Positions 40,222 to 61,523 are shown, numbered from the stretch's first letter. The stretch: DNA of 64,000 bases from an uncultured Gammaproteobacteria bacterium (GCA_965230935.1 OZ246400.1:438359-502358), one strand, 5' to 3'. Notes: generated by a model from the sequence alone, not told the origin. Numbers and translations: made by a program.

Positions 40222-40845
40222 TTATCCACGCGCCAGCGCCACATACCAAATCTGCTTTGTCCCAGCCCCAACAAGGGCTTGGGCGCATGCCTGGATTGTA
40301 GCTCCGGTAGTGATGACATCATCCACAAGCACAACTTTTTCTGGAGCGATCCCTCGACACACAAACGCCTCATGCACATTACCCAACCGCGCGGATCGAG
40401 AAAGTTGCGCTTGAGCTTTTGTGTGTCGAGTCCGAAACAACACATCGGTCCTTACCTCCAATTGAGTTACCTCTCCCACTGCATGTGCTACAATTTCTGC
40501 TTGATTAAAATCACGCACCACATATCGTTTTGCATGCAATGGAACCGGCACTACCGCAGGACGCAAGGCATTAATCTCTTGCGTCACCACTTCTCCCAAT
40601 GCATGACCAAGTCGACGTGCAATAGATTCAATAAACCCGAACTTAATCTCATGAATCGCCCGGCGCACTATCGGGTGTGCATGTGTAGCATACGTCAACA
40701 TACGCGCATCAACTTGCACATCTCGCACCTGTACCACACACGCATTACAAATACCACTTCCCTCTTGGTTACACCCAACACAAAAAAGTGGAAAAAGTGA
40801 ATCCAAAACTATATTCTTGAATTGTGCGATGATTCCTAAGCGCAC
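40222..40845 (-). CDS. comF: ComF family protein (ComFC-type phosphoribosyltransferase, competence)
   Basis: N-terminal CxxC...CxxC zinc finger (CVGCNQEGSGICNAC), PRTase motif VLVDDVITTGAT; start overlaps upstream gene stop by 1 nt. Confidence 0.7.
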   Translation of the reverse strand: MRLGIIAQFKNIVLDSLFPLFCVGCNQEGSGICNACVVQVRDVQVDARMLTYATHAHPIVRRAIHEIKFGFIESIARRLGHALGEVVTQEINALRPAVVPVPLHAKRYVVRDFNQAEIVAHAVGEVTQLEVRTDVLFRTRHTKAQAQLSRSARLGNVHEAFVCRGIAPEKVVLVDDVITTGATIQACAQALVGAGTKQIWYVALARG

Positions 40846-41528
40846 TACAGTACCCCTTCTTCACCCCAATCAACACGATTCACCAACCAATCATCTCCTG
40901 ATTTAAGTACACTTACCTCGGCTCGTTGATATACCGTATCACTTTGTCCGAGCGCTGTTTTTTCTTTTTGGGTAGTAACCACAATCAGTGCTGATTCAGC
41001 ATCCAAGTCCAATACCTCTGATGAAAGTGGATTTACTTTAATCGAGAGCGTCTGATCACTTGGAGTCCCACCACTCGCCACAACACCTTTTGCCCAATTG
41101 CGCATATCAACCGTCATCAGTGGATACAAGGCTTTCAAATTTGTATAATTACTATCTGCAGAATAACTTCCCATACGCTCCACAAATGATTCAGCAAACT
41201 TTCCTAAGCTAATCTGCAACTCTTCATCAGTGCTCAAATCCACAGGATCACTGGACAACGTCGGTGTAGTATTATTTTCAGCAATCTCCTCAACTAGCTC
41301 TTCAGTAGTGACGTCAGATTCCAACGTTCGTACTCCAACCTCTGCTGCTTCTATATCAGTGCTGGTATCAAACGCTGATCGATCCGGTTGCTCTGGTGTA
41401 ACCGTGACATCAGTTTCCGGTGGCGCACTCTCAGGACTTGAACTACTCAGCACACGCCATAATTGCATCCCAACCAAAATCACGACGATAAGCACTATTA
41501 CCCCAATTGCTATTTTTTTTGTTTGCAT
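40845..41528 (-). CDS. TM-anchored extracytoplasmic protein in T4SS-like operon (VirB8/TcpC-like position; unassigned)
   Basis: N-terminal TM IAIGVIVLIVVILVGM, Ser/Thr/acidic linker, globular C-domain; 227 aa. Confidence 0.35.
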   Translation of the reverse strand: MQTKKIAIGVIVLIVVILVGMQLWRVLSSSSPESAPPETDVTVTPEQPDRSAFDTSTDIEAAEVGVRTLESDVTTEELVEEIAENNTTPTLSSDPVDLSTDEELQISLGKFAESFVERMGSYSADSNYTNLKALYPLMTVDMRNWAKGVVASGGTPSDQTLSIKVNPLSSEVLDLDAESALIVVTTQKEKTALGQSDTVYQRAEVSVLKSGDDWLVNRVDWGEEGVL

Positions 41529-41540
41529 ATGTTTTTGTGA

Positions 41541-43430
41541 TTAAACTTCTCCACCTTCACCTTCTTGCGCTGCTTGGAGCTCTTTACGCGCCTCTTCAAT
41601 CTCAATCAGCTGACGTGGGTCAGTAGTAATAATTTGATCTTCAGTATACGAAGCGACGATTTTAATAGCCGCATGACGCGAACCGGCAAAAAAGATTCCT
41701 TCACCAACACCGCCCTCGAGCAACAAATACTTCTCCCCTTCAGTGAGCAAAAACGTCTTTTGCACCAAATCAATTGATGCCGGAGATTGTCGCAATAGCA
41801 ACTGGAGCTGCGAGTTCGTCACAATGGCTTGACCGTAGACCGAAGTCAAAAAGTCGTTTACATCCTGGGTAATGGTAGTCACGCCCAAGAAATACTTTCG
41901 AGCGCGCTTGGCCAGCGCGAAGATGAACTTGGCTGAATCTTCGTGTTGCATCAACCACCACGCCTCATCAATCACGAGAATACGTCGCTTTACCTCTGAT
42001 CGTACCACATTCCAAATAAAGTTAATAATGTTGTACACCGCGATTGGACGCAGTTCATCTTCCAGATCACGAACACTAAAAATCATCAATCCGTTATTAA
42101 TATCAACGGTTGTCGGTGAGTTGAGCAACCCGGAAAACGTACCGGTGGTATATTTTTCAAGTTTCGTAATCAAACTATCACTCCCTTCCATACCACTTAA
42201 GATATCGGCCAAATCTTGCATAATAGGAGGTTCAACTGTAGCAATATCTGCATCAGGAGTAATATCCTTTTTGGCATAGGTCTCAAGCAAGGCACGATCC
42301 AGCATAGAATCTTCCTCAGGAGTCAGATTCCCTAACATAATCCGCATCATGCCCTTAACCGTAATCACGGCACTACGAATAATATCTTCCATGTCAATTT
42401 GCTGCCCAACCGGACGTGGCAAATCAAACGGGTTAACTTTAGACTCCGAAGCAAGTGAGATATTAATGTACGTTCCACCAACTGCTTCTGCCAAATGCTT
42501 ATACTCCATCTCCGGATCAATAATGATCACATCAGTCCCAAGCATCAAACTCCGCAAAACCTCAAGCTTAATCGCATAACTTTTTCCAGCACCTGAAGTC
42601 GCAAATACGACTGAGTTTGCATTTTGCAATGAGAACCGATCAAACAAAATCAGACTGTTATTATGGCGGTTAATCCCGTACAAAATTCCATTCTCTGAGG
42701 TTAGCTCAGCTGAGATAAACGGAAATGATGCAGCAATTGGTGAGCTGTTCATATTAAAGGTCACCATCAACTCATCATTACCAAGTGGCAACGTTGAGTT
42801 AAATCCTTGCTCTGCTTGATAAAATACGCGCTTGGAATAAATCAACTTAGCACCAAACACATTTTCAACATCTCCGGAAATACGATCTAACTCATCCTTG
42901 CTCTTTGCATAAATCGTAATGTACAGCGCGAATTGGAAAAATTTTTCAATCCCTTGGGTGAGGGCATCACGCAATTGCTCGATATCGCGCAAAGCAGTCT
43001 CACGAATCGGATCGCGGGGCGCGCCCTTCTCAGCATCGGAGAGAATCTGCGCTTCCATAACACCGGATTGATTTTTGAGCTGTTTTAATACCACGGCAGT
43101 TTTCACCGGATAAAAGAACATGGCAATATCCAGTGTGTTGGAAAAATTAATAATCGGCGCAAACCACCCAACGGTAATATAGCGTGGATATGCCACCACA
43201 AACATGGTACGCACAAACGTATCCCCCAAGAGCACGTGCGAGGGGTTGATTTTCATGGCTGCCGGCGCAATCAAATCACGGATGTTCACCACCCCGGTAC
43301 GAAAGACCTTTTCCTCGGCCAACGTCCCCAAAGCCTCACGAGTATCTTTTGCGCGTTTTGATTCTTGTTTTTGTGCCTTGGCTTTCAGCCCTTCGGTCGC
43401 TTGTTTTTGTGAAATTGGTTTAAAGGCCAT
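41541..43430 (-). CDS. virB4: VirB4/TrbE/PrgJ-family type IV secretion ATPase
   Basis: Walker A FATSGAGKSY, DPEMEY, Walker B ILVIDEAWWL, GVTTITQ; 629 aa. Confidence 0.8.
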   Translation of the reverse strand: MAFKPISQKQATEGLKAKAQKQESKRAKDTREALGTLAEEKVFRTGVVNIRDLIAPAAMKINPSHVLLGDTFVRTMFVVAYPRYITVGWFAPIINFSNTLDIAMFFYPVKTAVVLKQLKNQSGVMEAQILSDAEKGAPRDPIRETALRDIEQLRDALTQGIEKFFQFALYITIYAKSKDELDRISGDVENVFGAKLIYSKRVFYQAEQGFNSTLPLGNDELMVTFNMNSSPIAASFPFISAELTSENGILYGINRHNNSLILFDRFSLQNANSVVFATSGAGKSYAIKLEVLRSLMLGTDVIIIDPEMEYKHLAEAVGGTYINISLASESKVNPFDLPRPVGQQIDMEDIIRSAVITVKGMMRIMLGNLTPEEDSMLDRALLETYAKKDITPDADIATVEPPIMQDLADILSGMEGSDSLITKLEKYTTGTFSGLLNSPTTVDINNGLMIFSVRDLEDELRPIAVYNIINFIWNVVRSEVKRRILVIDEAWWLMQHEDSAKFIFALAKRARKYFLGVTTITQDVNDFLTSVYGQAIVTNSQLQLLLRQSPASIDLVQKTFLLTEGEKYLLLEGGVGEGIFFAGSRHAAIKIVASYTEDQIITTDPRQLIEIEEARKELQAAQEGEGGEV

Positions 43431-43432
43431 AC

Positions 43433-44131
43433 CTATTGTTGGTCAAGTCGAATCTTACTTACCTCACCCATCTTTTCACTCATAAATACATCAGGATTGT
43501 ACACATTGTAATACAGCTCGATCAGGCTTTGGGTATCGAGGCGCGCAGTCTCCAAACTCATCCCACCCAGACCAGAGATTACTTTGCGCAATCGCATGTC
43601 GAGCTCTTCTTTTCGCTTGCGAAACTTTTCACTGCGCAACTTAAGGGTGAACGCTGGTTTTGCCGCTTCTTTGAGTCGGGTAAAGTATCCTTTACGCTTG
43701 TTGGACAACGGATCATACGGCACCACCACAAAAAATCGTTTACTCATAATCTCACCAAGATCAACCAGCTCTTTTACAAACGATCGGTAATCAGCGATTT
43801 GCATCTTGAGTAATTCATTGGGCTGCTCTTTTTCGGCTTCTGATAAACGATTCATGTACCCTTCAATGTTGAGTTTTCGTGATTGAATCACAATCTGCAA
43901 CGGAAAATCCAAACTATTTAAAAATCCAACATACGAGCTGATCAGTGCATTTTGCTCATCTTCTGATTTGAGCGAAAAGTTAACACTGGAAACCAACAAC
44001 ACCGCGCGCAGTGTTCCGTCTTTGAGTACCACAACATCATCTTTGATCTCAGCAATATCCAAAAACTTCTGCGTAGTAGTTTTAATTGTCTTCTTGGCCA
44101 ATTTTTTTGACTGCATACTATTGCTGATCAT
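43433..44131 (-). CDS. Hypothetical protein in T4SS-like operon (232 aa, soluble, Lys-rich)
   Basis: no motif recognised; tightly packed between VirB3-like and VirB4. Confidence 0.45.
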   Translation of the reverse strand: MISNSMQSKKLAKKTIKTTTQKFLDIAEIKDDVVVLKDGTLRAVLLVSSVNFSLKSEDEQNALISSYVGFLNSLDFPLQIVIQSRKLNIEGYMNRLSEAEKEQPNELLKMQIADYRSFVKELVDLGEIMSKRFFVVVPYDPLSNKRKGYFTRLKEAAKPAFTLKLRSEKFRKRKEELDMRLRKVISGLGGMSLETARLDTQSLIELYYNVYNPDVFMSEKMGEVSKIRLDQQ

Positions 44132-44573
44132 CAGGGCGATACACCCCGCCAGTGTTTACCACAAGTGATAAATCGGAAAGTCGACTCTTGCTTGCAGGCT
44201 TTTTTTCTACGATCTGCGCTCGCTGCGCCTGCAACTCTGCTTCGCGCTTTTCTTTTTTTGTTGGCTTTGGTGGTTGTATTGTATCATCTTTACCCTTCAT
44301 CCACACGCGGATTCCCGGCTTACGCATGGTTTGAAAAAAATTCAGGATAAAATAGTGAAACCGCTGACCGCGCACTTTGACAAACGCCAGGACAATGGCA
44401 AAAAAAATCAACGGAATTCCAGTGGTTAAAAACAGTGCAAAGTCAAAGAGTTTAAAAAAAATAAACTCAAACATACCAGCTACCAATAAAATCATAAACT
44501 GGCGGCCGGTGATAGGCCCGATAATCTTTGCTTCCTCATCAATAAATTGTGGAATCACAAATCGATCAGCCAT
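44118..44573 (-). CDS. Small 2-TM hairpin membrane protein, VirB3/PrgI-like by size, topology and position immediately upstream of VirB4
   Basis: FMILLVAGMFEFIFFKLFDFALFLTTGIPLIFFAIVLAFV hydrophobic hairpin; 151 aa. Confidence 0.4.
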   Translation of the reverse strand: MADRFVIPQFIDEEAKIIGPITGRQFMILLVAGMFEFIFFKLFDFALFLTTGIPLIFFAIVLAFVKVRGQRFHYFILNFFQTMRKPGIRVWMKGKDDTIQPPKPTKKEKREAELQAQRAQIVEKKPASKSRLSDLSLVVNTGGVYRPDDQQ

Positions 44574-44574
44574 A

Positions 44575-46284
44575 CTACCAACTCTCTAATACTTGGTTAC
44601 CGGCAATAATTTGAAACAACTCGTCATCATCAAGTACTTGTTTGCGCGCTTTTACCTGCTCTTTAACAAACTCGCCAATGGATTTGCGCTCTTGCAATGC
44701 CTCTACAATCATTTTCTCGTACAACTGATACGGCTCACTGCGACGCCACGCATAAATCGCTTGAATTTTATCAGGATAGGATTCTTCACCAATACGTGCG
44801 ATGGCAGACAGAATTTTTTCCATGCGAATCTCAGGCTGCGGCGAGCTGCGACGAAAATCGACCAACCGCAATTGCTCGATCTCTTGCACCGGTCCGGTGA
44901 GTGCCTGGCCGGCTGGACGCACATCAGTCATAGTCGGCTCTGGAGCTTGCGGTGCTTTTACCGGCACATCAGCTACTGCAGATGGTGGTGCCGTTTTTCC
45001 AGACACTGCGGCAACTTTTGGCGCTTGTAACCCACCGGAGATTGCGGCATTACCCCCCGGAATCTCAAAGTGTGGTGCCGTGCGCAATGTATCCTCATGT
45101 GTAGCACCGATTTCATGTTCGGGATTGAGATCTGGTTTGCGCTGTTCTGATTTCTTTTGCGTTTTCTTAGCTCTTCCTACGACTTTGGTAAATGTTGTAT
45201 CAGCAGTAGCCTGAGCTGCTTCTTTCTTTTTGGGCGCTGCCTCTTTCTTCTTTTGTACTAGAGCATCTGCTGTTTTATACTTGGCCATTGCCTCTTCAAC
45301 AATCTCTACAATTGCCATGGCAAGCTCAGCGCTCAACGCGGCTCCTCCTTGATCAGCGGCGCGCATAAGTGTCTCACTCAGGGCACGCGTATCACGTGCA
45401 CCGCCAACACGAGAGCTGATCACTGATCGAAGTGATTCAGGATCTACATCACGAATCGTATGATTAATCTCTGTGAGTATTTCATCAAGTAATTGAGTGC
45501 GTTGTGGTTGATGTGCTCCGGCGCCTGCTCCAAGCGTTTTGCGCATCGCGCGCTTTGCTTTTTTTACATCATGCGCAATTGCTTTTTCATCCTCTGACTT
45601 GCCCTTACGTCGTCGGCGTACGGTGACATTCGAGACATCAACAAGACCATCGCGCTTTGCCACACGCATACTATTGGTACCAGCAAACGCTTGTTTAATA
45701 GCAAGAGCTGCACTGTGCGCATCATCTTCTGAAAGTTGCAGCTTCTCTTGCAGTGTTTGCATAACCTGCTGTTCATTAAACGACGAGCGGCCTGCTTTGA
45801 CCACTTGTTGCGCTAATTCAATAAACGCGGCCTTGGTTCGTGGATTTTTCACTGATGGCGGGCAAAGCGATGCAATCTGTGCGGTCATCTGTGTATCGGA
45901 AAACGCTGGGATACTAAAATGCTTTCCGGTTGAGTCATACGTTTTGGTTGCTGCCTTTGCATCCCACTTGGCAACCTCTTTGTGTACCGGCCCTAAGTAA
46001 TCCCGTGCCGGGAAAAATAACCGCATACCAATTTCAGCTGCCAGTGGTGTTGTTTGCGCCACTGACTTTCCAAGCGCTTTAGCTAAGGTGCTTGGAAATT
46101 GCTTCAGTGATGTCTTACCCAAAAACACTTCAAGAACCGTGAGCAGCATTGCCCGTTGTTGCTCTGTTTTATCTAGTCCATAATGCGCGAAGAGTGACTC
46201 ATTAACTTGAGTCACTTCTACGCTACGCAAATATGCTTGAACATTTTGCGGGAGCTGCTTAAGTGTAGCAAACACAATCGGCAT
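44575..46284 (-). CDS. Hypothetical 569-aa soluble protein in T4SS-like operon (Ala/Lys-rich, no P-loop)
   Basis: no TM, no Walker motif; sits between VirB6-like and VirB3-like genes. Confidence 0.45.
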   Translation of the reverse strand: MPIVFATLKQLPQNVQAYLRSVEVTQVNESLFAHYGLDKTEQQRAMLLTVLEVFLGKTSLKQFPSTLAKALGKSVAQTTPLAAEIGMRLFFPARDYLGPVHKEVAKWDAKAATKTYDSTGKHFSIPAFSDTQMTAQIASLCPPSVKNPRTKAAFIELAQQVVKAGRSSFNEQQVMQTLQEKLQLSEDDAHSAALAIKQAFAGTNSMRVAKRDGLVDVSNVTVRRRRKGKSEDEKAIAHDVKKAKRAMRKTLGAGAGAHQPQRTQLLDEILTEINHTIRDVDPESLRSVISSRVGGARDTRALSETLMRAADQGGAALSAELAMAIVEIVEEAMAKYKTADALVQKKKEAAPKKKEAAQATADTTFTKVVGRAKKTQKKSEQRKPDLNPEHEIGATHEDTLRTAPHFEIPGGNAAISGGLQAPKVAAVSGKTAPPSAVADVPVKAPQAPEPTMTDVRPAGQALTGPVQEIEQLRLVDFRRSSPQPEIRMEKILSAIARIGEESYPDKIQAIYAWRRSEPYQLYEKMIVEALQERKSIGEFVKEQVKARKQVLDDDELFQIIAGNQVLESW

Positions 46285-46301: not shown

Positions 46302-49154
46302 TTACTCATCAAACTGAGCAAAACTTCCAGCACTTGGCGGCTCTGATGCTTTGAACTCTGCAACCACTTCCGGCTTACTCTTTTCAATTGCGCTGAGCAC
46401 TTGTTGCATGCTTACTCCTGCTTGTCCGGCATTGCCTTTACCAATGGCCTTGACCATTGCCTTTTGCAACACCTTCAATGCTTTGACCGTTCCAACACTA
46501 TCGCTAAATCCTTGTTGTGCTGTAGGTGAGCTATTGATTGCAGACATGGCAGCATCTCCTTGTCCAGCAGCGATCAACTTACCAAGATTTTCGCCCACAC
46601 TTGCGGCATCTGGTTTTGCTCCACCGACCGCCTTTTCAAATACGTCTTGGAAATCTTTTGGATTGGTGACATGGACACTGAGTACGCCACTTTTCTCCTT
46701 GTCATCTTTCTCTTCACCCTCTTCTTTGCCACCTGATGCTGGTTTTTCAGTCTTCGGTGCCGCCTTTGGTTCGGCCTTTGGCGCACCTTTCACACCTGCT
46801 GCTTCAGTTGGTTCAGCTGCTTCTTCTGGTTTTTTCCCTGGTTTGCGACGTGATCCTACCCCACTTGTTGGACGTTTTGCTTTGCCAGTAGGTGGCGCCT
46901 CTTCAGCTGCACCCTCCTCTGGTGCAGCAGCAGCCGCATCAGCTGGTGGTGGAGTTGGTTTTGGTCGACGACGAGCTCCTGATCCTACACCACTGGTTGG
47001 TCGTTTTGCTTTGCCAGCTGGCGGCTCAGTAGGCTCAGGTGGTTCTGGACGATCATGTGAGCCGGCATCAACATCTTGGTCTTGGCCAGGACGTTGGGTT
47101 GGAGCACCACCGCCACCGGCAGCTCCTCCACCGCCTGCGGCGCCTCCTCCTGCACCACCTGCGCCAGCTGCACCACCACCGGCAGCTCCGCCTCCTCCTG
47201 CACCACCTGCACCGCCGCCAGGACCTGGTGCCGGACGACCAGCAGCACTGCCATGGAATCGGGTGTTCCATGCGTCTCTTTCTGCTCTTGAGTCATCACC
47301 TTTGTTTCGTTTCATGTACTCTTTCTCCATAGCAGCAAAGTCAACAACCTTATCGTATGTATCATCATTTACACCAGGAGCAAGTTGATTCTGATGTGCA
47401 GGAGTTGATCCAGCAGGGAACTTGCGACCTGCCTCTGTCAAAAGTTCGGTATCATCAAAGTCAGTGTAGTCTTTTTGCTTATCAGCAACCGCCCCACGAA
47501 TCTCTTTACGCGCACCATCAGTCGGATTAGTGGTTCCGCGCTCTTGTACTTGTCGCTTGTTGTATGCCTCTTTAACATCTGACTGTTTCTCATCACCACT
47601 CTTAAAGAAGAAACCTCCAACTGTACCGAAATCTTTTGCACCTTTGCGCGCAGAATAAATCTGAGACCCGTCTTTTAAGAATGGAATTTGTGCTTTTCCT
47701 GATGCCACATCTTTTGATGCAGACTTCAAAAAGTTAACCCCTTTATTAACCGTATTCCCAACAGTCTGCTGAGTAAGCTGTTTAGTATAGCCATATCCTT
47801 TATCCACTCCAGCACGCGCATATCCGGCAATCTTCGCGGCAACAGTAGCCGCAGCCCCGCTCATCCCACCGGCATATTTAATTCCTCCAATGAGCACAAC
47901 ACTACTCACAATAAAGGCAGCCATGTTATTCCAGGTCGAAATCTCAGTATTCGTAATACTTGGTGTGTCTTTAAATGCTTTCCCTTCTCCACCAAGTGCA
48001 TCAACGACCACTTTTACGGAATCAGAATTCATCAAATCAAAAGCAGCCTCATTTTGCTGAACCGAAGTTAAGGCAAGCCAGACAAAAAATACCAAGATTG
48101 GACCAACCGTAATTTGTTTCACCAAATGATCTACCCACTTACTAAAGTATTGTCTAGTTGCAGGAAGCACGGCAAACAAAAATGCCAAAGGAGATAGAAT
48201 AATCAAAATCCAAATGCCAACAATTCGAAAAACAATCACCAGCAACAAGGTAAGCGCGATCGTCAACGCAAAAGTAGAAATAATTAACGTCAAGCTCAAC
48301 CCAATCCAGTTTTGAATAAAGTCATAACTTACAAACGACGCTGCGATTTGGGTGCCAATTTCTGCAAGTGCGCTCCCTGTTGCTTCACCTTCGGCCTTTC
48401 CAACAGTGTCCTGAACGGCAATAGCCGCTTGATCGATCAATGGTTTAAGCTTGAGCCAAGAATCAATACGCAATAAGTTAACAAAGTTTCTTCCTGCACT
48501 GTCATATAAGGCACTGGAGAATGTCAACATGACCACTTGTGCAGCATCAAGAAGTAGTCCAATAATGGTTCTACTGAAGTTCACCAAAAAGATTGCCAGG
48601 ATCAATCGTGGAATCAATTGTTGATATTGATATGAAGCAATCCGAAAGACCGTTGCAAAAGCGATCACCAACAATACCACCACAAAAAACATGTTTGCTA
48701 CATCCCGGATTGTTGCCCAACCGCTATTAACAAACTCATTATCCAAAAAGTTATTGTACTGGATCATCAAGATAAACGTATTCCATGACCAAATCAGCAC
48801 CCCATTTACCAATTGACTAAACGATTGAATAATAATGTCAAAAAGCAAAAAGAACACATAGAGCATGAAACCTTCGCCAGCCAAACCAACAGCACCTGAC
48901 GCCAAACCACCGAGCAATGCTGCTCCGGTCGCCCCTAAAAACTTTCCAATCTTGGCAACTTTTACCCCTTCAGAATAGTCAGCAACATCACTGTTGAGCA
49001 CCACTGATGTATCTGTTGCGGTGTATGGCACATTGACTGCGGCTTGTGCCTGCGCCATGCCAAGCGAACCAAACAATGAAGACAAGGTAAATACAAAAAG
49101 ACACGCGCCCACAATCGCTTTTCTTAATGAAAGATGTCTATATATGCTTTGCAT
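46302..49154 (-). CDS. Polytopic membrane protein, VirB6/PrgH/TcpH-like by topology and operon position, with long Gly/Ala- and Pro-rich low-complexity region and charged C-terminal domain
   Basis: signal peptide + at least 6 TM in first 450 aa; PAPGPGGGAGGAGGGGAAGGG... stretch; 950 aa. Confidence 0.45.
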   Translation of the reverse strand: MQSIYRHLSLRKAIVGACLFVFTLSSLFGSLGMAQAQAAVNVPYTATDTSVVLNSDVADYSEGVKVAKIGKFLGATGAALLGGLASGAVGLAGEGFMLYVFFLLFDIIIQSFSQLVNGVLIWSWNTFILMIQYNNFLDNEFVNSGWATIRDVANMFFVVVLLVIAFATVFRIASYQYQQLIPRLILAIFLVNFSRTIIGLLLDAAQVVMLTFSSALYDSAGRNFVNLLRIDSWLKLKPLIDQAAIAVQDTVGKAEGEATGSALAEIGTQIAASFVSYDFIQNWIGLSLTLIISTFALTIALTLLLVIVFRIVGIWILIILSPLAFLFAVLPATRQYFSKWVDHLVKQITVGPILVFFVWLALTSVQQNEAAFDLMNSDSVKVVVDALGGEGKAFKDTPSITNTEISTWNNMAAFIVSSVVLIGGIKYAGGMSGAAATVAAKIAGYARAGVDKGYGYTKQLTQQTVGNTVNKGVNFLKSASKDVASGKAQIPFLKDGSQIYSARKGAKDFGTVGGFFFKSGDEKQSDVKEAYNKRQVQERGTTNPTDGARKEIRGAVADKQKDYTDFDDTELLTEAGRKFPAGSTPAHQNQLAPGVNDDTYDKVVDFAAMEKEYMKRNKGDDSRAERDAWNTRFHGSAAGRPAPGPGGGAGGAGGGGAAGGGAAGAGGAGGGAAGGGGAAGGGGAPTQRPGQDQDVDAGSHDRPEPPEPTEPPAGKAKRPTSGVGSGARRRPKPTPPPADAAAAAPEEGAAEEAPPTGKAKRPTSGVGSRRKPGKKPEEAAEPTEAAGVKGAPKAEPKAAPKTEKPASGGKEEGEEKDDKEKSGVLSVHVTNPKDFQDVFEKAVGGAKPDAASVGENLGKLIAAGQGDAAMSAINSSPTAQQGFSDSVGTVKALKVLQKAMVKAIGKGNAGQAGVSMQQVLSAIEKSKPEVVAEFKASEPPSAGSFAQFDE
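47040..47260. repeat. GC-rich low-complexity tandem-like repeats (GGn/GCn codons) encoding Gly/Ala/Pro tract inside VirB6-like gene
   Basis: ccaccgcc / gcaccacc / ggagc iterations; generates long spurious antisense ORF 46351..47388. Confidence 0.5.
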
Positions 49155-49206
49155 ATACTCTGCAAAGAGTATACCATTTTTTATTAACGATGCCCACGTA
49201 TTTTTG

Positions 49207-49248
49207 TGTAAAAAAAGAAGAACCCCACAATCGTGATGATCGTGGGGG
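49207..49248 (-). terminator. Terminator for SPFH-like gene: CA-rich tract then CCCCAC...GTGGGG hairpin then U-run (minus strand)
   Basis: rc reads ...CACAACAACGGGGACCCCCACGATCATCACGATTGTGGGGTTCTTCTTTTTTT. Confidence 0.45.
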
Positions 49249-49290
49249 TCCCCGTTGTTGTGACTCGGCGAAGAAGCGTTCGAAGAGTGG

Positions 49291-51619: not shown

Positions 51620-51628
51620 TAGTAAACT

Positions 51629-51657
51629 ATTGCATTTACAATCGCTTTTATCTACAA
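51629..51657 (+). promoter_or_regulatory. Sigma70-like promoter TTGCAT-17-TACAAT for lipoprotein B (AT-rich segment inside high-GC island)
   Basis: hexamers 51629..51634 and 51652..51657; AAGGAGG SD before ATG 51691. Confidence 0.4.
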
Positions 51658-51690
51658 TCACCTAAGGCACAGGCAAAGGAGGAAACAGCC

Positions 51691-52299: not shown

Positions 52300-52403
52300 T
52301 CCTTGAAGGCCTGGCCTGGTCAACTCCCTCACACAACCCAACACACAACAAGAAAACCCCAGCGAACTGCTGAGGGATTTCTTTTTTGTAAAGAGTTTTA
52401 TGA

Positions 52404-55400: not shown

Positions 55401-58400
55401 GCAAGTGTTTACATTTTGATGAGAAGTAAACTTTTCAATCGCGTCCCCGGCCTGGGAGTATGACACCACCACCGATGGTGGGAATGGACTATCTTCTTCT
55501 GGATACATGCGACAACTTTGCGCCACCAAATCCTCTGCCTCTGCATTGATTCCAATGACACATCGTCCAGAATAACAATACCCATTTACCGGAAGATTTG
55601 GCTGCCCATCAAGGGGTAAGTTATACGAACAGGCAGTACCATCACTTTGTCCGGCACAACTTCCACTCGCACCAAGATTTGCAGCATTTTTATGACGGAA
55701 TCCCATGGAGACCTCATTCTTCAGTGCATCAACAACCACCGGCTCGAGATCTGCAGCTTGAAACTTATTAAAGATGGAGTACCCACTATAATCAGCTGCT
55801 GCCCATGACGTGTCGCGACCGGTGTAGAGTGCTTTGGTCAAAATTTGATTATAGGTATCATTTTTCTTCTCCACCCATCGAGTACACTCGCCTGATGTTT
55901 GATCACCTTTCCATTCTGCACACACACCAACATTGGTACACACATCTCGTTCTTCTCCTGCACGATTGTCCCACGCTTTAAATGATGACTTACATGAGAG
56001 CCACTCACTACACACACGATCACGGTTAACCTTCAAGATAATGTTACTGTTGTTCACTCCACATTTTGTTCGTGACTTAAACAAGATACGCTCCAACACT
56101 CCCTCAAGCTCATAAAAGTTGTCCGGTAAAGTGTCTTGAGTTGCAGCATCAAGATAATCTCGACAAAGTTGTGCAGTCGCATTGTACGCTTGTAACCCTG
56201 TTACCTGCTCTGCCCCATCAAAGACAGCTTTATACCCTGCTTGTGCTTCACAAAAATCAACAACCCCGGACTTTACACTCTCAGTACACCGAACACCAAA
56301 GGTCACCTCATCTCCAGCTCCTCCAATCAAATCTCCGACTGCGGTTGGAGTAAAGGTTTCTACTGTGGTCACTTTCACCTCAGTTAATTTTTCCCAACAC
56401 GCTTGAAATTTAGGCTCACAGTTACTATCTGCTACCCATACAAAATCATTAATATCGATCGCTCCTGGAGCATATTGTTTCACCTGCGGACACCCACCAG
56501 ACAAATCAAGATATTCTGCACATTCAATCGGTGTTCCATTAAACGTTGCACCCAAATCTGATGATGCAAGTGGTTCGTGCGGTTGTGGGGCTACCGGATT
56601 ACCGTTATTCTGCGCTGATGCGGCATAGGTCATTTGCGTACTCCACTTTTTCGTGAGATTCGCGGTATCATCAAACAGCACACATCCGTCTTCAAGACTC
56701 ACTTGTCCGGCACAACTGGTGGCATCTAATGCTTCATCATTTAAGAAGTAGTATGGCTTACCAAGAGGCATGCTGTCACTGACATCATTACGGTCAACAA
56801 AGGCGGTACAGCCACCATAAATAGACTTACATTCACCTACCGTACCATCATAGAGCGCATCACCATTTTTCCAAATACCAAACACATTGCCCGCTTCAAC
56901 ATACCCGTCATAACACGGCTCCGGCTGACCAGAATCAGTCACTGATTTAAACCATCCATCGCGAGTCGTACCATCTGGCATGACCACTTTTTCTTGATAG
57001 GTACATCGGTTTGGCCCAGGATCTTTAAAGTAGAAAGTTTGTGTTTGGTTTGAATATGAATCACATCCATTTTCAAACACCTTACACATCTGCGTTACAT
57101 ATTGATCTGGCAAATTATTCAAATATATTGTGTCAACACTACCATTTGCCTTAGTTTCACCAAACGCCTGACACCCTTTTTGCTCGGCCACACACGCAAA
57201 CTCAGGATTATTGACTACATAAATTGCTTGATCTTCAGGAACCACAACGTCATCCTCCGGATTACTGGTGTTGGTTTGCGGATCAATACCGTCATTGAAG
57301 ACCTGGGAACTTACCGATGCGGAGTTTTGCGTATTAATAAACGCCTGACATCCCACCACTTCTTCACGACATACCCGATTAAACCCGGTCAAGAACTGTT
57401 GCTCACCAAGTTCAGTGCTATATTGCTGACAACCAAGCGCCACACCAGGTAAGTTATCATTTGGGTTACTATCACATGCTACCGGCGTATTCCAAGAATC
57501 TTTAATCAAATAATGTACGCCATTTGCCTCTTTCACAAACAACTTATCAATAAAGTACGTTGGCTCGCCCCCACCAACAGCATTCAAGAGCATCCGCCCG
57601 GTCACCACCTGAGTATTATCAACGGTGATTGGGCCAACGGTGTACTGTCGCCATACGGCATCAAGACTTGCTGAATGTGCACCACTGCTGCCTGAGATTA
57701 CTTGACCGGCCTTGTCTTCGAGCTCTAGATCGAATGACACACCGCTGGCACCTTTACCCCAGAAGGTAATGGTATAGGCATTTGCATGTTGCAATACAAA
57801 CCGAGGGGACACAATACCGGTTGCTCCGCCTTCTAACGCATGATCTCCCACAGTCACCGCCTCAGTTGAAAGTGATGCATTTTCCCAATCAATAACGCCG
57901 GCACCACCTTCAAAATCAACTTCATAGATAATGTTTCCTGATGCTGATGCTGCACCGGTATATTCTCGACAAAGATTCTCTCCAGCATCACACTTGTGAC
58001 TCATAGATGGAAGTGCTTTGTACAAACATGCACCGTCAAGCGAGACAGTTCCTCCGGTCTCAGTACATACATCCGCTGCAATTGCTTCGTTTCGACGAAG
58101 TGGTGCACATGAATCAGAAACAATAATCAACTGGGAAATAAATCGATAATACGCATCACCTTCACTGCCAAACAATTCACGACAATCCGGATTGTAGTTT
58201 GGATCAGTATCGCGATTTGCATAAATCGTCGCATTACAGGTTGAAGCAAACTCTGCTAACACCGCAGCGTCATCAGTAAGATATTTTGGCGCATCGGCGT
58301 CCAGTACAAAATCAAAGGACTTGAGCTGGAATCCAACGGTATCAGATCCCTCCCAGGTGTAGAACAGATCATGACCATCCGGACCAACATCAGCCGGTTT

Positions 58401-60782
58401 TACACAGTGTTGTAAATCAGTATAGTACTCAACCTTCTCTCCTCCACTCTCTGCTGAGTCTAAATTCGTAAAACTAGTACACCCAACTGACTCTGCAGCG
58501 CAGGCTACAGCAGTCTCAGGAATAAAGTAATCAATCTCCTCAAGCGGATGGAGAGATGATGCGCTTTGGGCAAATTGCGCATACCCAACACACTCCGCAT
58601 CACAGACATTATTTTGTGATGCAATTGCCGGGACGTCAGGATCGCCATTTGCCGGGGTATACATAGAACATCCCACATCAGCTAAGGTACACAATTGTGC
58701 ATAATCCCCACACTCAAATGGATCAGTGAGTGGATCGCCGGTACATCCAAGATAGTCCGGCGGAATACGCAAATAATTAATGTTGTCCCCTAGCCCCTGT
58801 TGTAAGGCAGTACACCCGGCAGCAGCCTCACTACACGTCCCCACATCTTTATTAAAGAAAATTTGCTTGCCGGCAGTATCCCAACTACCAGACTCAACTT
58901 GATCAGTAAAGTACCCGCGACAACCAACATTTGCCTCAGTACAATACTCATTATTGATGGTACTTGCCAAGTACGATACATTGGCACCGGAGCGAGCCGT
59001 TAAATTGGTACATGATTCATAGTATGCCGGACAACTATTTCCTTTGAAATCCCACGCATTTTTCTCTCGCAAACAATATCCCCATGCACCAACGCACTCG
59101 CCATTTTCATTGGTAACCACACAGGTCGGATCATCAACACAGGCTTCTTGTCTAACAGCCCCGCGATCTGATTGCAATACCGGCCCATATACTTTGGCGC
59201 GACATTGCATCAGAGGAGCAATCAACAACCAATCCGGATCAATCAAGTGACAATATGGATGATTATCATCAGCTACTCCGTCCGGGAAACTTGAGTCGTC
59301 ATAATTACAATCATCAAAACCATCGACGACTGTCTGGAGTGAGACTCCAGCGATTGGCGCCTCAAGTGCTGCGATTTCCCACCCAATTGGCAAAATACGT
59401 GCGCGACGAAGTTTTACTAAATTACTATAACAATACGCCTCGGACCAACAAGAGTTCTGGGAATTTTGCGCAGAATTTGGCGGGAGGAGCAGCCAATCGC
59501 CGTGAATCAAATCTTGTTCTATTGCTTGGGCAACCGTCATTGCTGACTGACTCAAATCAGCTCGAATGGCCTGGGCAAATTTTTCATCAATTGTACAGTT
59601 ATTCTGTTGTGGAAATTCGTCAGGACACGCCAAAAACTCAGTTACAATATCAACACTATTTACACTTTTAACTTCAGCCGTATAAATGTCTGCATACGTT
59701 GCTTCAAATGCTTGCTTTCCTGCTGACGGTTGTGAAAACTGATTAAATGCCAAAGATGATGCTGCAGGAGCTGCTGGAACTGGAGTCTGTCCTTTGGTAA
59801 ACCACTGCTCAATCAACTTATCAGCCAATGTACTTAAAAATGTCCCGGCAATTGAGGCAACAATCCCTTCACCACTGGCGACAAATGCATTAAAGGTGTC
59901 ATTCTGACGCTCATTAGCCGCTTTTGGACCGGAGATCGATGCGGTTTCTTCAACTGATGCCGCTGGTGTCACCACTCGTTCGGAAACTTGATCAGTCACT
60001 GGCTTAAATGAATTGCTTGCCCGTCGTGTAAGTTCTGCTTCTTTTTGCGCATTGAGCACATCAAGCTGTGCTTGGAATTGTGTAAAGTTAGAAAGACTCA
60101 AGTCATTGGAAAGCGGATCAAATGCTTTTTTGTACTCTGCCAAAAAGACACTTGGCTCGTTTTCTTCTGCAAAGGTCTCCCAATTATCGATAATGTCACG
60201 AAAATCACATCGTTGTTGTAACTTGGTTTCACTTGGAGTACCAAAACCACTACCACCTCCCCCACCTAAAATATTCCCCACTTCAAAACCACTAAACAGT
60301 GCCGCTGGAATACCATAAAGCAGATACGGCGCATCCGGAGAACATAGACTTAATCGCCGTGTTGAACCATCTGAAAACTCACCCAAAAAACTATCTCCGA
60401 TTGACTCGACCGCTTCACCTGCTGCACCATAGGCAGCATTTTCCAAATACTCACCCCAATCTACTTCAAACGCCAATGGTGTTTGTCCCCACTCACCAGT
60501 AGCAATATAGGTTGCGGTATCAGCAGCCAACTTATTTCCATATTGTGATGCTAAGTTGACCAGTGCAACCGTTCCGGCTTGCAATAAGAATTCAGCAATG
60601 TTTGTGACTACTCGTTCCCAAATATTGTTTCCTACGGTGATTCCCTCAAGCACCGGCGCGGTAACTGCAAATTGCGCATGTGCTGGTTGTGCCGGAACCA
60701 TGCCCATCACGGTGAGTGCAACCGCAAAAACACCAAGCAGTGTTTTCTTTATCCATGACGATTGTGAACGTGGTGTATGCAT
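52404..60782 (-). CDS. Giant (2792 aa) secreted cysteine-rich cell-surface protein (adhesin/pilus-like candidate) of the T4SS-like operon
   Basis: signal peptide MHTPRSQSSWIKKTLLGVFAVALTVMGMVPAQPAHAQ; very high Cys content throughout; single uninterrupted ORF. Confidence 0.55.
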   Translation of the reverse strand: MHTPRSQSSWIKKTLLGVFAVALTVMGMVPAQPAHAQFAVTAPVLEGITVGNNIWERVVTNIAEFLLQAGTVALVNLASQYGNKLAADTATYIATGEWGQTPLAFEVDWGEYLENAAYGAAGEAVESIGDSFLGEFSDGSTRRLSLCSPDAPYLLYGIPAALFSGFEVGNILGGGGGSGFGTPSETKLQQRCDFRDIIDNWETFAEENEPSVFLAEYKKAFDPLSNDLSLSNFTQFQAQLDVLNAQKEAELTRRASNSFKPVTDQVSERVVTPAASVEETASISGPKAANERQNDTFNAFVASGEGIVASIAGTFLSTLADKLIEQWFTKGQTPVPAAPAASSLAFNQFSQPSAGKQAFEATYADIYTAEVKSVNSVDIVTEFLACPDEFPQQNNCTIDEKFAQAIRADLSQSAMTVAQAIEQDLIHGDWLLLPPNSAQNSQNSCWSEAYCYSNLVKLRRARILPIGWEIAALEAPIAGVSLQTVVDGFDDCNYDDSSFPDGVADDNHPYCHLIDPDWLLIAPLMQCRAKVYGPVLQSDRGAVRQEACVDDPTCVVTNENGECVGAWGYCLREKNAWDFKGNSCPAYYESCTNLTARSGANVSYLASTINNEYCTEANVGCRGYFTDQVESGSWDTAGKQIFFNKDVGTCSEAAAGCTALQQGLGDNINYLRIPPDYLGCTGDPLTDPFECGDYAQLCTLADVGCSMYTPANGDPDVPAIASQNNVCDAECVGYAQFAQSASSLHPLEEIDYFIPETAVACAAESVGCTSFTNLDSAESGGEKVEYYTDLQHCVKPADVGPDGHDLFYTWEGSDTVGFQLKSFDFVLDADAPKYLTDDAAVLAEFASTCNATIYANRDTDPNYNPDCRELFGSEGDAYYRFISQLIIVSDSCAPLRRNEAIAADVCTETGGTVSLDGACLYKALPSMSHKCDAGENLCREYTGAASASGNIIYEVDFEGGAGVIDWENASLSTEAVTVGDHALEGGATGIVSPRFVLQHANAYTITFWGKGASGVSFDLELEDKAGQVISGSSGAHSASLDAVWRQYTVGPITVDNTQVVTGRMLLNAVGGGEPTYFIDKLFVKEANGVHYLIKDSWNTPVACDSNPNDNLPGVALGCQQYSTELGEQQFLTGFNRVCREEVVGCQAFINTQNSASVSSQVFNDGIDPQTNTSNPEDDVVVPEDQAIYVVNNPEFACVAEQKGCQAFGETKANGSVDTIYLNNLPDQYVTQMCKVFENGCDSYSNQTQTFYFKDPGPNRCTYQEKVVMPDGTTRDGWFKSVTDSGQPEPCYDGYVEAGNVFGIWKNGDALYDGTVGECKSIYGGCTAFVDRNDVSDSMPLGKPYYFLNDEALDATSCAGQVSLEDGCVLFDDTANLTKKWSTQMTYAASAQNNGNPVAPQPHEPLASSDLGATFNGTPIECAEYLDLSGGCPQVKQYAPGAIDINDFVWVADSNCEPKFQACWEKLTEVKVTTVETFTPTAVGDLIGGAGDEVTFGVRCTESVKSGVVDFCEAQAGYKAVFDGAEQVTGLQAYNATAQLCRDYLDAATQDTLPDNFYELEGVLERILFKSRTKCGVNNSNIILKVNRDRVCSEWLSCKSSFKAWDNRAGEERDVCTNVGVCAEWKGDQTSGECTRWVEKKNDTYNQILTKALYTGRDTSWAAADYSGYSIFNKFQAADLEPVVVDALKNEVSMGFRHKNAANLGASGSCAGQSDGTACSYNLPLDGQPNLPVNGYCYSGRCVIGINAEAEDLVAQSCRMYPEEDSPFPPSVVVSYSQAGDAIEKFTSHQNVNTCQKFDANGNLQACNACAYQKASFGAKNSAPRYYDLTGVLPVGVCSGGFSPDEQSRDGQACDHKSDCTDDRGGFEHDSDREHGTCRYLKSTQKVFGAQGYCLEEDLSTSVNANQFTHACQTWYPATLLSGSSDIFNQYDEAGYQLPVGQGGQYYCVESSGNAWRAGAHRDWNDFTYVAGSVFDAKDDYGGELVYETHVKTSNPEYKNAGNRPYLNSASYKMVVNHLGWGSPGGLPRKFNLGACGTDCYSRVHADDEDHPTYYSGILDDANLRFEDVERVEIYIDPESRVARGGSSHDYLPTDTPMAIFTDGRFNGVHEEGSGPVAPGRWMSQMVVVDDADLIPDGDEWDWEEDKTIRLRWFWENDYVFTMDETILKTKMHPNAHANVGKGFCPTGDPDWHRMLVDVVFDANTGKLTAIEHRMCDAGNGDANVNFAVIFYLREYCTEVAQVYDPEAPLSTDSDNKTNLAWTDRVNSYSTFWLGPPAVLDVGAFGPSYSFDQDFLPFGSAHATSPPIKDLSESGPPQLVQTTPHPALSSLEYAVPWYVATDSTEVIQGAGLEYLNAGSPLSCQNNYTHNIDNSMFVDGDKRTMAFVQDRDSCRASMCIGGEHHGAFCNSQEQCPPKTLETMDGMLIVDSGVCMGIPLGDANTDVHIGRVDLDKLGPTNDDAPESGTIEKADARQMLQNIFARVYNVWTWQDNKYVQTNPSSVVDPFLARKIVSNENGFLNHGISNEAIGQGGPKTPIHPPRVNAVICTASGCQKGDDKAVGVNGQEKGFIVSNGSSMVASVEFYADVADNQMPITEMAVKWNSDYEENGNIIYADVDRFAGKYKNRVPSCSDEGDKFGAHPDACSDGFYQFIHYYSFGDCAGEGAGTSNTGLVDDQNDGLYVVGSGDVPYIENPDGSQTPIAFEPEKYGFLTGDRYCAFRPRVQIMDNWNWCNAKGAGSDMEWNQSGISHNGSTGAWQEVAANPDKGDCKDPKNFNYASAHFEGLIIVKEEK

Positions 60783-60785
60783 AGC

Positions 60786-61523
60786 TTACTGTGACTGGAG
60801 TACTGCTTGTTGAAGCAATTGAAATACCTCTTCATCTGAAAGAGCGGCGACCTCTGCTGGATCCATACCTGATTCAACTAAAATCTTACGAACATCAGCA
60901 ATGGTCTGCGTGCTATCTTGCCCGGCGATCGAACCACTCACCAAACCGCCAGGGCTCGCTGTTGGACTCTCGGCAATCGTCTCGTTGTACAACTCAAGCA
61001 GTTGCGCATCATCAACACTATCTAGAATCTCATCACTGACGCCAGCATCGCGAAGCGCGGCGCGAAGCCCAAGTACATCCACACCAGCAGCACTCTCACT
61101 CACTGATGACTCAGGAGCATACGCATCTGCTTCGGCACTGGGCAAAAACCCGAAACAGGTTTCGCCCTTTGGACAGTTTGGATTTTCTCCGTCAGCAATC
61201 TCTTTGGCATCGCTCTCTCCATCTGAATCTGAGTCCGTAAGATAGGGACTGGTCTTATACAAATTGATCTCATCAAAATCTGATAGCCCATCCTTATCGG
61301 TGTCCTCGGCTTTGAGAATTGCTTCGATCTCATCGGCTTCAAGTCGGGACAAATCAAACTCTGCTGATGATGGCGTAGCTGGTTCTTGCGGGCCATAAAA
61401 AATTCGAGACTTGATTTGAGAAAATCCTAAAAAGAGCGCAGAGATACCAAACAACGCGAGCACCATCGCGCTTATTCTCTCATATCGCGATAACCGCCCA
61501 ATTGCTGAGCGAAATTCTTGCAT
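60786..61523 (-). CDS. TM-anchored acidic protein with thrombospondin-type-3-like Ca-binding repeats (DTDKDGLSDFDE, DSDSDGESD), first gene of operon
   Basis: N-terminal TM ISAMVLALFGISALFLGF; DxDxDG motifs; stop 4 nt before giant gene start. Confidence 0.45.
   Translation of the reverse strand: MQEFRSAIGRLSRYERISAMVLALFGISALFLGFSQIKSRIFYGPQEPATPSSAEFDLSRLEADEIEAILKAEDTDKDGLSDFDEINLYKTSPYLTDSDSDGESDAKEIADGENPNCPKGETCFGFLPSAEADAYAPESSVSESAAGVDVLGLRAALRDAGVSDEILDSVDDAQLLELYNETIAESPTASPGGLVSGSIAGQDSTQTIADVRKILVESGMDPAEVAALSDEEVFQLLQQAVLQSQ

Follow-up and report, generated by a model that had tools for sequence, protein, structure and literature searches.

The window analysed here is the 64,000-nucleotide (64-kb) stretch OZ246400.1:438359-502358 of assembly GCA_965230935.1, with positions counted from its first letter, and its central feature is a type IV secretion system (T4SS) gene cluster that ends in comF. 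The original prediction described this locus as a compact operon of nine minus-strand genes with tiny gaps or overlaps, and all nine open reading frames (ORFs) are present exactly where it placed them. The locus, including the stretch that interrupts it, reads as follows (lengths in amino acids, aa; TM, transmembrane).

40222..40845, minus strand: ComF(C)-family protein, 207 aa, with a 4-Cys zinc ribbon and a phosphoribosyltransferase (PRTase) domain
40845..41528, minus strand: bitopic protein, 227 aa, VirB8-like by predicted fold (AlphaFold2 and Foldseek)
41541..43430, minus strand: VirB4-family ATPase, 629 aa, middle and C-terminal ATPase domains
43433..44131, minus strand: TrsD/TraC-like protein, 232 aa, free-standing homologue of the VirB4 N-terminal domain
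44118..44573, minus strand: PrgI/VirB3-like protein, 151 aa, two-TM hairpin
44575..46284, minus strand: p569, a lineage-specific cytoplasmic protein of 569 aa without a TM helix, between VirB6 and PrgI
46302..49154, minus strand: extended VirB6-like polytopic membrane protein, 950 aa, with TM segments and a sub-threshold TrbL match
49155..52403, no strand assigned: foreign GC-rich insert between giant and virB6, 59% GC in a window of 45% GC
52404..60782, minus strand: secreted Cys-rich giant protein, 2,792 aa, with a signal peptide and no membrane anchor
60786..61523, minus strand: p245, 245 aa, with an N-terminal TM helix (aa 15-38), two Ca-binding motifs and an acidic tail

The seven genes from virB6 to comF (49154 down to 40222) follow one another at junctions of +17, +1, -14, +2, +12 and -1 nucleotides (nt), and at the other end p245 lies 3 nt from the giant gene and 11 nt downstream of ksgA. 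The close packing described for the nine genes is thus borne out within these two blocks and fails between them, where 3,249 nt separate the stop of the giant gene (52404) from the start of virB6 (49154). The nine genes do not form one compact operon, because a 3.25-kb foreign insert with opposite-strand genes and terminators splits the giant from virB6.

The arrangement was compared with 80 related loci from a genome scan, whose VirB4 proteins are 67-77% identical to that of the window and whose genomes are named Uhr-, Magasanik-, Falkow- or Patescibacteria; components were counted by tblastn and ORF clustering, with flanks of 10 kb either side of virB4. The order giant-VirB6-p569-PrgI-TrsD-VirB4-VirB8-like is kept across these loci, with matches for TrsD in 78 (50-66% identity), PrgI in 75, the p569 family in 70, the VirB8-like family in 67 and VirB6 in 48 (about 51 by clustering), while a giant was found upstream of virB6 in 13, a count limited by the reach of the 10-kb flank. 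Two longer loci carry a giant (2,536 aa), VirB6, p569 paralogues, PrgI, a TraC-like protein, VirB4, a 193-aa protein and ComF, followed by convergent SUF genes. Recurrence in 80 related genomes is far more than chance would give. A search with VirB4 returned an exact match, on a 931-kb contig, and at least 8,000 Patescibacteria homologues, and the best 120 listed are 71-82% identical and named, where a name is given, Patescibacteria, Uhrbacteria or plain "bacterium". This identity of 67-82% to Patescibacteria homologues would place the window's VirB4 in the Patescibacteria clade, and the source of the window is a Patescibacteria genome of class ABY1.

The VirB4 ATPase claimed in the original prediction is well supported: the 629-aa protein reaches 344.7 bits against the NCBIfam model conju_CD1110 (cutoff 325; profile positions 185-729 of 752), 96.2 bits against Pfam P-loop_TraG (25.8) and 40.1 bits against AAA_10 (27.5), matches the solved VirB4 domain 4ag5 in PDB at E 2e-48, and has Walker A (ATSGAGKS) and Walker B (RILVIDEAWW) motifs readable in translation. 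Its 232-aa neighbour, which had been left as a protein of unknown type, is TrsD-like and resembles the VirB4 N-terminal domain, with matches to NCBIfam VirB4_plasma (positions 88-278, E 3.8e-11), TrsD (E 2.8e-8) and conju_CD1110 (positions 12-87) and a precomputed annotation as Pfam PF26593 (TraC-like). Since the 629-aa protein lacks the N-terminal part of the profile and the 232-aa protein matches that part, VirB4 is split over two genes, with the N-terminal (VirB3/membrane-contacting) domain supplied in trans. The predicted VirB3/PrgI hairpin is likewise seen, with TM segments at 25-49 and 50-70 and a Pfam PrgI score of 32.0 bits against a gathering threshold of 27; only the trsD-like gene stands between the PrgI gene and virB4.

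The VirB6/PrgH-like call on the 950-aa protein stands in part. The protein is polytopic, with a signal/TM helix and about six TM helices in aa 1-430 (about seven hydrophobic segments), while its Pfam TrbL match (E 7e-5, 23.1 bits) stays below the gathering threshold of 25.9. TrbL is the sole recurrent Pfam family among the 48 VirB6-like homologues (6 matches, best 1.4e-5), in all of which the N-terminal domain and the place upstream of p569/PrgI are conserved, and a search of the family profile against PDB sequences gave nothing significant. The C-terminal half (aa 450-950; 46302-47800) is hydrophilic, of low complexity and rich in Gly, Ala, Pro, Lys and Glu, and it holds a (G/A)n stretch some 50 residues long and a pair of nearly identical GKAKRPTSGVGS repeats; relatives do not conserve this half. 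Altogether, the recognition of a T4SS-like cluster in the VirB6, VirB3, VirB4 order of MPF-FATA type is upheld, and a Gram-positive (MPF-FATA) ancestry is supported.

Two further proteins of the cluster came into view through related loci. A direct homologue search with the 227-aa protein returned only the protein itself, and a query alignment of fused p227 and p569 C-terminal domains from related loci then found both families and enabled structure predictions. The AlphaFold2 model of the 227-aa protein, built on a 77-sequence alignment, shows a TM helix (aa 4-28), a disordered acidic linker and an NTF2-like alpha+beta C-terminal domain (aa 100-221, mostly pLDDT >90). Foldseek against PDB places this domain nearest to CagV (6iqt, E 1e-4, TMt 0.72), followed by Agrobacterium tumefaciens VirB8 (2cc3), TrwG, PrgL (7aed), TcpC (3ub1) and DotI, the VirB8-type matches spanning E 1e-4 to 1e-3 and TMt 0.5-0.72. 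The protein, first described as no more than TM-anchored, is thus predicted from its modelled fold to be the VirB8-like subunit. At the level of sequence the protein has no Pfam or NCBIfam match, Pfam VirB8 matches only 2 of 46 family members (E 0.008), and the family profile found nothing significant among PDB sequences.

For p569, the predicted structure comprises three all-helical modules (aa 130-205, 260-345 and 465-565) with disordered linkers between them, of which the C-terminal module is the conserved part. None of the libraries searched gave anything informative, and its family profile found nothing significant among PDB sequences. In many relatives two genes of the p569 family stand side by side between VirB6 and PrgI (89 members in 70 loci; for example L089 9003-9983 and L090 8979-9992), where the window genome has only one, of 569 aa.

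The last gene of the cluster encodes a ComF protein in which both the zinc ribbon (C22xxC25...C33xxC36, CVGC...CNAC) and the phosphoribosyl pyrophosphate (PRPP) loop of the PRTase domain, VVLVDDVITTGATI, can be read in translation, in line with the PRTase motif reported earlier. It matches TIGR00201 comF over its full length (E 7.4e-25, 88 bits against a curated cutoff of 233.55) and GntX (E 2e-23), and both Pfam Pribosyltran (25.6 bits against 26.3) and DZR_2 fall just below threshold. The reported 1-nt overlap with the preceding stop is real, yet the start codon is GTG (TAGTG) rather than ATG, with a Shine-Dalgarno-like AAGGGG upstream. Adjacency was scored in the 71 of 80 loci whose sequence extends 1.5 kb or more beyond virB4 on the downstream side. 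Of these, 50 have comF behind virB4 on the same strand after 545-1,105 nt, with room for exactly one VirB8-like gene, and the junction between comF and that gene is small or overlapping; in 19 the place of comF is taken by a pilin/DsbA-module gene or by radA, and comF itself is found behind u412, at a distance of a few kb; the remaining 2 show neither arrangement. One inversion with breakpoints p227|comF and u214|u412 converts one arrangement into the other (inverted loci: L012, L014, L021, L031, L038, L039, L045, L046, L051, L054, L063, L067, L069, L071, L072, L075, L077, L078 and L080), and recG and radA accompany the locus in both. Since the inversion uncouples comF in 19 loci, the coupling is a conserved but dispensable feature of class ABY1; in most ABY1 genomes the core operon ends with comF, and its co-transcription in the window is very probable. 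The placement of comF behind u412 was considered as independent evidence for a link between comF and the T4SS and was rejected, as one inversion explains it.

On the upstream side, the giant protein is confirmed as secreted and Cys-rich: it carries a signal peptide, Cys occurs 96 times, and 13 C-x6-C motifs follow the pattern "..VGCxx[FY]". Neither Pfam, searched with the whole protein and with nine 400-aa pieces that overlap, nor a phmmer search of PDB returned a match. A HMMER scan of aa 800-1999 over 1.84 billion representatives returned 1,238 clusters at E<=1e-3, 935 of them at E<=1e-30, a spread that points to a large unannotated family rather than a one-off protein. Family members are mostly 2,500-3,800 aa long and encoded upstream of virB6 in ABY1 genomes, and the window giant aligns colinearly, with 24-30% identity, to its 2,536-aa counterpart beside VirB6 in L089. 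Five loci (L001, L002, L053, L057 and L076) have in place of the giant, upstream of virB6, a gene whose product of about 760 aa combines a Peptidase_M23 domain with Cys-rich, MopE-like motifs for metal binding. The neighbouring p245 fits its earlier description as a Ca-binding-repeat anchor, since one TM helix and two thrombospondin-type-3-like Ca-binding motifs (DTDKDGLSDFDE and DSDSDGESDAKE, pattern DxDxDGxxDxxE) are seen; it forms a singleton cluster, has no Pfam or PHROG family, and gives only weak NCBIfam matches to MtsD/CglD repeats (E 0.004-0.017).

A second T4SS-associated module of five plus-strand genes (26373..33586) lies 7-14 kb from the core, outside the region covered by the original prediction.

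26373-27611, plus strand: TM-anchored 412-aa protein
27613-28257, plus strand: DsbA-like thioredoxin (Pfam Thioredoxin_4)
28193-29863, plus strand: 556-aa protein, VirB2-like two-TM pilin domain fused to Amidase_2 (Pfam T4SS_pilin, Amidase_2)
29851-32538, plus strand: second pilin-domain protein, 895 aa, 27 Cys
32363-33586, plus strand: TM-anchored 407-aa protein

The pilin domains of the 556-aa and 895-aa proteins are 34% identical over 159 aa (E 3e-29), and in the pilin family Pfam T4SS_pilin matches 18 of 20 members (best 3e-10) and TrbC/VirB2 matches 2. The C-terminal domains of this family vary among VanY, M23, 3D, Amidase_2 and M15. The proteins are VirB2-like pilin domains fused to peptidoglycan hydrolases, in effect VirB2-VirB1 fusions, which plausibly supply the VirB2 and VirB1 functions absent from the core operon. 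In 19 loci the second module, or the radA that accompanies it, stands directly after VirB4 and the VirB8-like gene on the same strand. The DsbA-like enzyme fits both the Cys-rich giant and the 895-aa protein. Pilin-hydrolase fusions were also recorded in loci L002, L010, L014, L029, L030, L045, L053, L057, L059, L063, L067, L072, L075, L077 and L080, and the 895-aa protein itself shows a GHSGGG serine-hydrolase-like motif and a weak NlpC/P60 match.

The flanks of the cluster are chromosomal in character.

61535..63988, minus strand: the housekeeping genes prfA, tsaC (Sua5/YrdC) and ksgA, tightly packed directly upstream of p245 and the giant
39897..40097, minus strand: two tRNA-Ser genes, with the anticodons GCT and TGA, immediately after comF, marking the downstream end of the locus
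35672-37744, minus strand: recG (Pfam), a DNA-repair/recombination gene accompanying the ABY1 T4SS and comF
33611-34933, plus strand: radA (Pfam), a DNA-repair/recombination gene accompanying the ABY1 T4SS and comF

Synteny of recG/radA with the T4SS was found in 21-27 of the 80 related loci. The T4SS genes have a third-codon-position GC content (GC3) of 0.31-0.47, which is the native codon usage and the same as that of dnaE and pheST. Among all ORFs of at least 120 aa in the 64-kb window there is no relaxase, coupling protein (VirD4/TcpA), integrase or ComEC domain, in agreement with the earlier statement that VirD4 and relaxase are missing, and the closest thing to a coupling protein is a very weak TraD match (E 0.07) on VirB4 itself. 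No replication gene was found in the window either. Within 10 kb either side of virB4 in the 80 loci, relaxase, coupling protein and ComEC are not among the recurrent neighbour families, which are housekeeping in kind (MetK, SAH hydrolase, Der, LytR, an ABC transporter and VanW). The same position and order class-wide, together with a highly conserved VirB4, indicate vertical inheritance. What is shown for the cluster is its set of subunits, its vertically inherited place on the chromosome and its operon layout.

The tRNA-Ser genes have their own promoter-like site (40218-40190) and terminator (39870-39849). At 40120-40175, upstream of the real tRNA gene and downstream of comF, the leader and 5' end of tRNA-Ser(GCT) are repeated over 21 nt (aatcaatGGAGAGGTGGCTGA), with a 48-nt GC-rich spacer behind them, and this partial copy could be an insertion/excision scar. 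Further downstream, at 38044-39208 on the minus strand, the match of a 186-aa ORF to the MFS_1 domain is confined to the first half of that domain, and the ORF overlaps at its 3' end with the beginning of a conserved membrane ORF of 216 aa, an arrangement that may reflect a truncated or frameshifted transporter gene.

The insert that parts the giant from virB6 carries three orphan genes of its own.

49291-50226, minus strand: orphan 311-aa membrane protein
50683-51531 and 51691-52299, plus strand: two paralogous orphan lipoproteins

All three have a GC3 of 0.83-0.92, while native genes without exception lie at 0.31-0.48. A promoter-like site close to consensus (TTGACA-17-TATGAT, 50365-50337) is present in the insert, and hairpin terminators at 52375-52357, 51604-51592 and 49247-49223 stand after the giant, each lipoprotein gene and the 311-aa gene. 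A tandem duplication with a period of about 765 nt (51088-51387 and 51853-52152, 98% identical), whose unit is the lipoprotein C-terminal domain plus terminator, probably explains why short-read assemblies break here. The insert genes are absent from all 80 related loci and have no relatives in viral contigs, plasmids, Pfam, NCBIfam or PHROGs; five metagenome matches were set aside as chance word matches in low-GC Bacteroidota-like TonB-type receptors. An assembly chimera was also considered, and an independent Logan contig (L081), identical to window positions 51067-49078 (100% over 1,990 nt), argues against it and marks the virB6-side junction as real. The insert is recent and foreign and does not belong to the T4SS; this genome alone has it between the giant and the core operon.

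Other GC-rich islands of about 60% GC in this 45% GC genome occur at 12481-13561, 18701-19501, 34901-35621 and the window edge 1-381, alongside the one at 49221-52381. Their orphan ORFs have GC3 of 0.66-0.92, and those found in a 15-billion-protein collection are all singletons, the two lipoprotein sequences not being on record there. Each island has upstream an AT-rich TTGACA-type promoter-like site and a GGAGG ribosome-binding site, and downstream a CA-rich stretch and a hairpin terminator. Between radA and recG (34995-35551, minus strand), two overlapping GC-rich ORFs of 85 and 137 aa sit behind a TTGACT...TATAAT-like promoter in a layout that resembles a toxin-antitoxin pair; neither has a family match, and an Rfam search of the ORF-poor GC island at 34.7-35.9 kb at a permissive threshold returned nothing.

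Taken as a whole, these observations are best explained by a chromosomal relaxase-free T4SS cluster typical of class ABY1 of the ultra-small Patescibacteria, working by an inferred host-contact mechanism, a reading to which we give a probability of roughly 0.85. Under this reading, a VirB4/TrsD motor docked by VirB3 on the cytoplasmic face would power the assembly of pilin-domain proteins and move a macromolecule through a VirB6/VirB8 channel at the site of host-cell contact. The hydrolase domains of the pilin fusions would open the cell wall at that contact, and the disulfide-rich giant, oxidised by the DsbA-like enzyme, may be a surface adhesin or contact factor. With neither a relaxase nor a coupling protein linked to it, the cluster is read as something other than a conjugation apparatus, and conjugation is very unlikely. 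The earlier suggestion, by analogy, of a role in DNA uptake or host interaction is reasonable as a hypothesis, but two observations weaken it: Southlakia can do without ComF, ComEC and DprA although its T4SS is essential, and 19 of 71 related loci have lost the comF adjacency. Of the possible activities, export or pilus-mediated host manipulation is a tentative choice held at somewhat less than even odds, and import of host nucleic acid handed to ComF, RadA and RecG is rather unlikely, with the remainder left to other activities.

Several points weigh against the host-contact reading. The VirB8 assignment rests on a predicted structure whose NTF2-like fold also occurs in the CaMKII hub and ARC6, the VirB6 assignment lies below the Pfam threshold and is without PDB sequence support, and both the TrsD and the ComF scores fall under their curated NCBIfam cutoffs. 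Neither p569 nor the giant has any functional annotation, and the junction between the giant and the insert (~52300-52404) is without independent assembly support. A coupling protein or relaxase could lie elsewhere in the 931-kb genome, beyond the 64 kb, and the only genetics available come from a different class, Saccharimonadia.

These genetics concern Southlakia epibionticum, a Saccharibacterium in which the T4SS (SEML1_0006-0019) is essential for epibiotic growth, while ComEC, ComF and DprA are dispensable for fitness and competence requires ComEC (Wang et al. 2023, Cell; PMC10633639). The same account is given in a 2025 review, with competence ascribed to ComEC and type IV pili (PMC12857230), and the ABY1 type genus has a conventional uptake system of type IV pili (T4P) and ComEC (PMC11809585). 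The survey of Patescibacteria VirB4 proteins by Quinonero-Coronel et al. (2025, Microb Genom; PMC12102498) found a monophyletic clade related to MPF-FATA, with TrsD as the commonest partner of VirB4, with VirB3, VirB6, VirB2-like pilins and ksgA near virB4, and with few VirB8 proteins, nearly all in ABY1. Relaxases were almost absent and coupling proteins rarely linked to Patescibacteria virB4. In the same survey virB4 of ABY1 was co-located with comF, recG and radA, which its authors read as functional coordination, and other classes had their T4SS beside dnaA, dnaN or rnpA.

Two alternatives concern the role of comF. In the first, comF is only a syntenic passenger, held in place by inherited gene order in a small, compact genome and a shared transcript, with no functional tie to the T4SS, and serves the ordinary ComEC pathway; independently of the odds given above for export and import, we regard this as nearly an even bet. 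It is favoured by the confinement of the comF linkage to one class, others placing the T4SS next to dnaA, dnaN or rnpA, by the single inversion that put comF behind u412 in 19 loci, by the equally tight packing of prfA, tsaC and ksgA against p245 and the giant, and by the dispensable ComF and essential T4SS of Southlakia. The tight or overlapping comF junction is nonetheless kept in 50 loci while VirB4 diverges down to 67% identity, and after the inversion comF, recG and radA are still within 10 kb of virB4.

The second alternative takes the cluster for a nucleic-acid import machine, a reversed relaxase-less T4SS like Helicobacter pylori ComB or archaeal Ced that would take in DNA, or nucleic acid of the host at the contact site, and pass single strands first to the co-translated ComF and then to RadA and RecG. 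The 1-nt overlap of comF with the VirB8-like gene speaks for it, as do the position of comF directly after that gene in 50 of 71 ABY1 loci with recG/radA beside it (a link also noted in PMC12102498) and the missing type IV coupling protein (T4CP) and relaxase for export, both in the window and among the recurrent neighbours of the 80 loci. Patescibacteria are moreover without nucleotide synthesis, and a 2026 preprint ties VirB4 to feeding on host RNA. The VirB4 protein is also weakly similar to the DNA importer CedB (E 1e-10), though at 40.9 bits far below the cutoff of 700. Against import, ComEC, ComF and DprA add no fitness in Southlakia whereas its T4SS is essential, competence there depends on ComEC and type IV pili, and ABY1 genomes hold the conventional T4P and ComEC uptake system that is the normal client of ComF. 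The adjacency is in addition confined to ABY1, and in 19 of 71 loci an inversion has broken it although both partners are still present; cell contact, moreover, suits the pilin-hydrolase and giant adhesin-like proteins better than free-DNA uptake does. We consider this alternative unlikely. Its most elaborate form, in which the ABY1 T4SS and translationally coupled ComF are one machine importing host nucleic acid through a reversed conjugation channel, with ComF, RadA and RecG processing the strand and p569 replacing the coupling protein as an adaptor at the channel base, seems to us distinctly improbable.

Sites at tRNA genes are often used by integrating elements. An ordinary or decaying integrative and conjugative element (ICE), with its relaxase and coupling protein just outside the window, is hardly credible and largely refuted: the best-scoring curated VirB4 model is indeed that of the conjugative-transposon family CD1110/CTn2, and tRNA-Ser genes with a partial duplicate of a tRNA 5' end adjoin comF, but relaxase, T4CP, integrase and replication gene are missing from the 64 kb and from the recurrent neighbours within 10 kb either side in the 80 loci, codon usage is native, the flanks are prfA/tsaC/ksgA and recG/radA, the same locus with a highly conserved VirB4 holds its position and order across the class and in 80 of 80 related genomes, and the published phylogeny sets these VirB4s in a separate Patescibacteria clade.

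The T4SS locus of the window is real and was correctly recognised, but it is a member of an already described kind and no new kind of system. The suggestion of novelty is not supported for the system as such, since the system, the missing relaxase and the ABY1 association with comF, recG and radA are already published (PMC12102498; PMC10633639), the former survey including the MPF-FATA ancestry. What the present analysis adds is the assignment of a VirB8-like subunit, the second module with its pilin-hydrolase fusions and DsbA-like protein, the family to which the giant belongs, the inversion by which comF is uncoupled, and the GC-rich orphan cassettes. Few machines are known to be essential to epibiotic life in this huge and mostly uncultivated radiation, and the Patescibacteria T4SS is among them; the ABY1 version offers handles for experiments: comF in the operon, a clear VirB8-like gene, pilin-hydrolase fusions, and a conserved disulfide-rich giant with a neighbouring DsbA-like enzyme. 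The orphan cytoplasmic protein p569 marks a place where a substrate receptor might sit, the inversion is a natural uncoupling of comF from the core operon that is useful for comparative tests, and the GC-rich orphan cassettes, whose promoters look native, could be traces of genes acquired from a high-GC partner.

Among known systems, the closest are the Patescibacteria-clade T4SSs (PMC12102498; PMC10633639), with which the locus shares a chromosomal position, VirB4 with an adjacent TrsD-like protein, PrgI/VirB3, VirB6, VirB2-like pilins nearby, the lack of a linked relaxase or coupling protein, ksgA, and the ABY1-specific comF, recG and radA. Beyond these it adds a VirB8 role, given by predicted fold to a conserved gene of 190-230 aa, pilin domains fused to varied peptidoglycan hydrolases, a giant Cys-rich family (>1,000 clusters) upstream of virB6, the conserved cytoplasmic helical p569 between VirB6 and VirB3, and the foreign GC-rich insert inside this genome's locus. 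Gram-positive MPF-FATA systems (PrgH-PrgI-PrgJ-PrgK-PrgL of pCF10, CD1110 of CTn2, TrsC-TrsD-TrsE of pGO1) share the order VirB6, VirB3, VirB4, VirB8-like, the best curated VirB4 match (CD1110), a VirB8-like fold resembling PrgL/TcpC and the lack of an outer-membrane core, and the TrsD/TrsE pair of pGO1 shows the same two-gene split of VirB4 with a like TrsD protein. In contrast to MPF-FATA systems, the window locus is chromosomal and vertically inherited, has VirB4 split in two genes, is without relaxase, T4CP (PcfC-like), oriT and PrgB-type surface adhesin, and has hydrolases that are not of the PrgK/TrsG type and are fused to VirB2-like pilin domains, which the Gram-positive systems lack.

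More distant parallels come from systems that import DNA. H. pylori ComB is likewise a T4SS without relaxase or coupling protein in an organism with ComF, and it sets a precedent for a T4SS in DNA import with ComFC handling incoming single strands; it differs in being a diderm system of VirB2-4 and VirB6-10 that carries DNA across the outer membrane only, ComEC crossing the inner one, in having its ComB genes outside any operon with comFC, and in showing, as far as the present analysis found, no sequence relationship beyond the shared VirB families. Archaeal Ced (CedA, CedA1, CedA2, CedB) has in common with the window locus a VirB4/HerA-type ATPase, relaxase-free DNA import on its own side and a weak CedB match, whereas CedA-like proteins are absent from the window locus and Ced belongs to another domain of life with another envelope.

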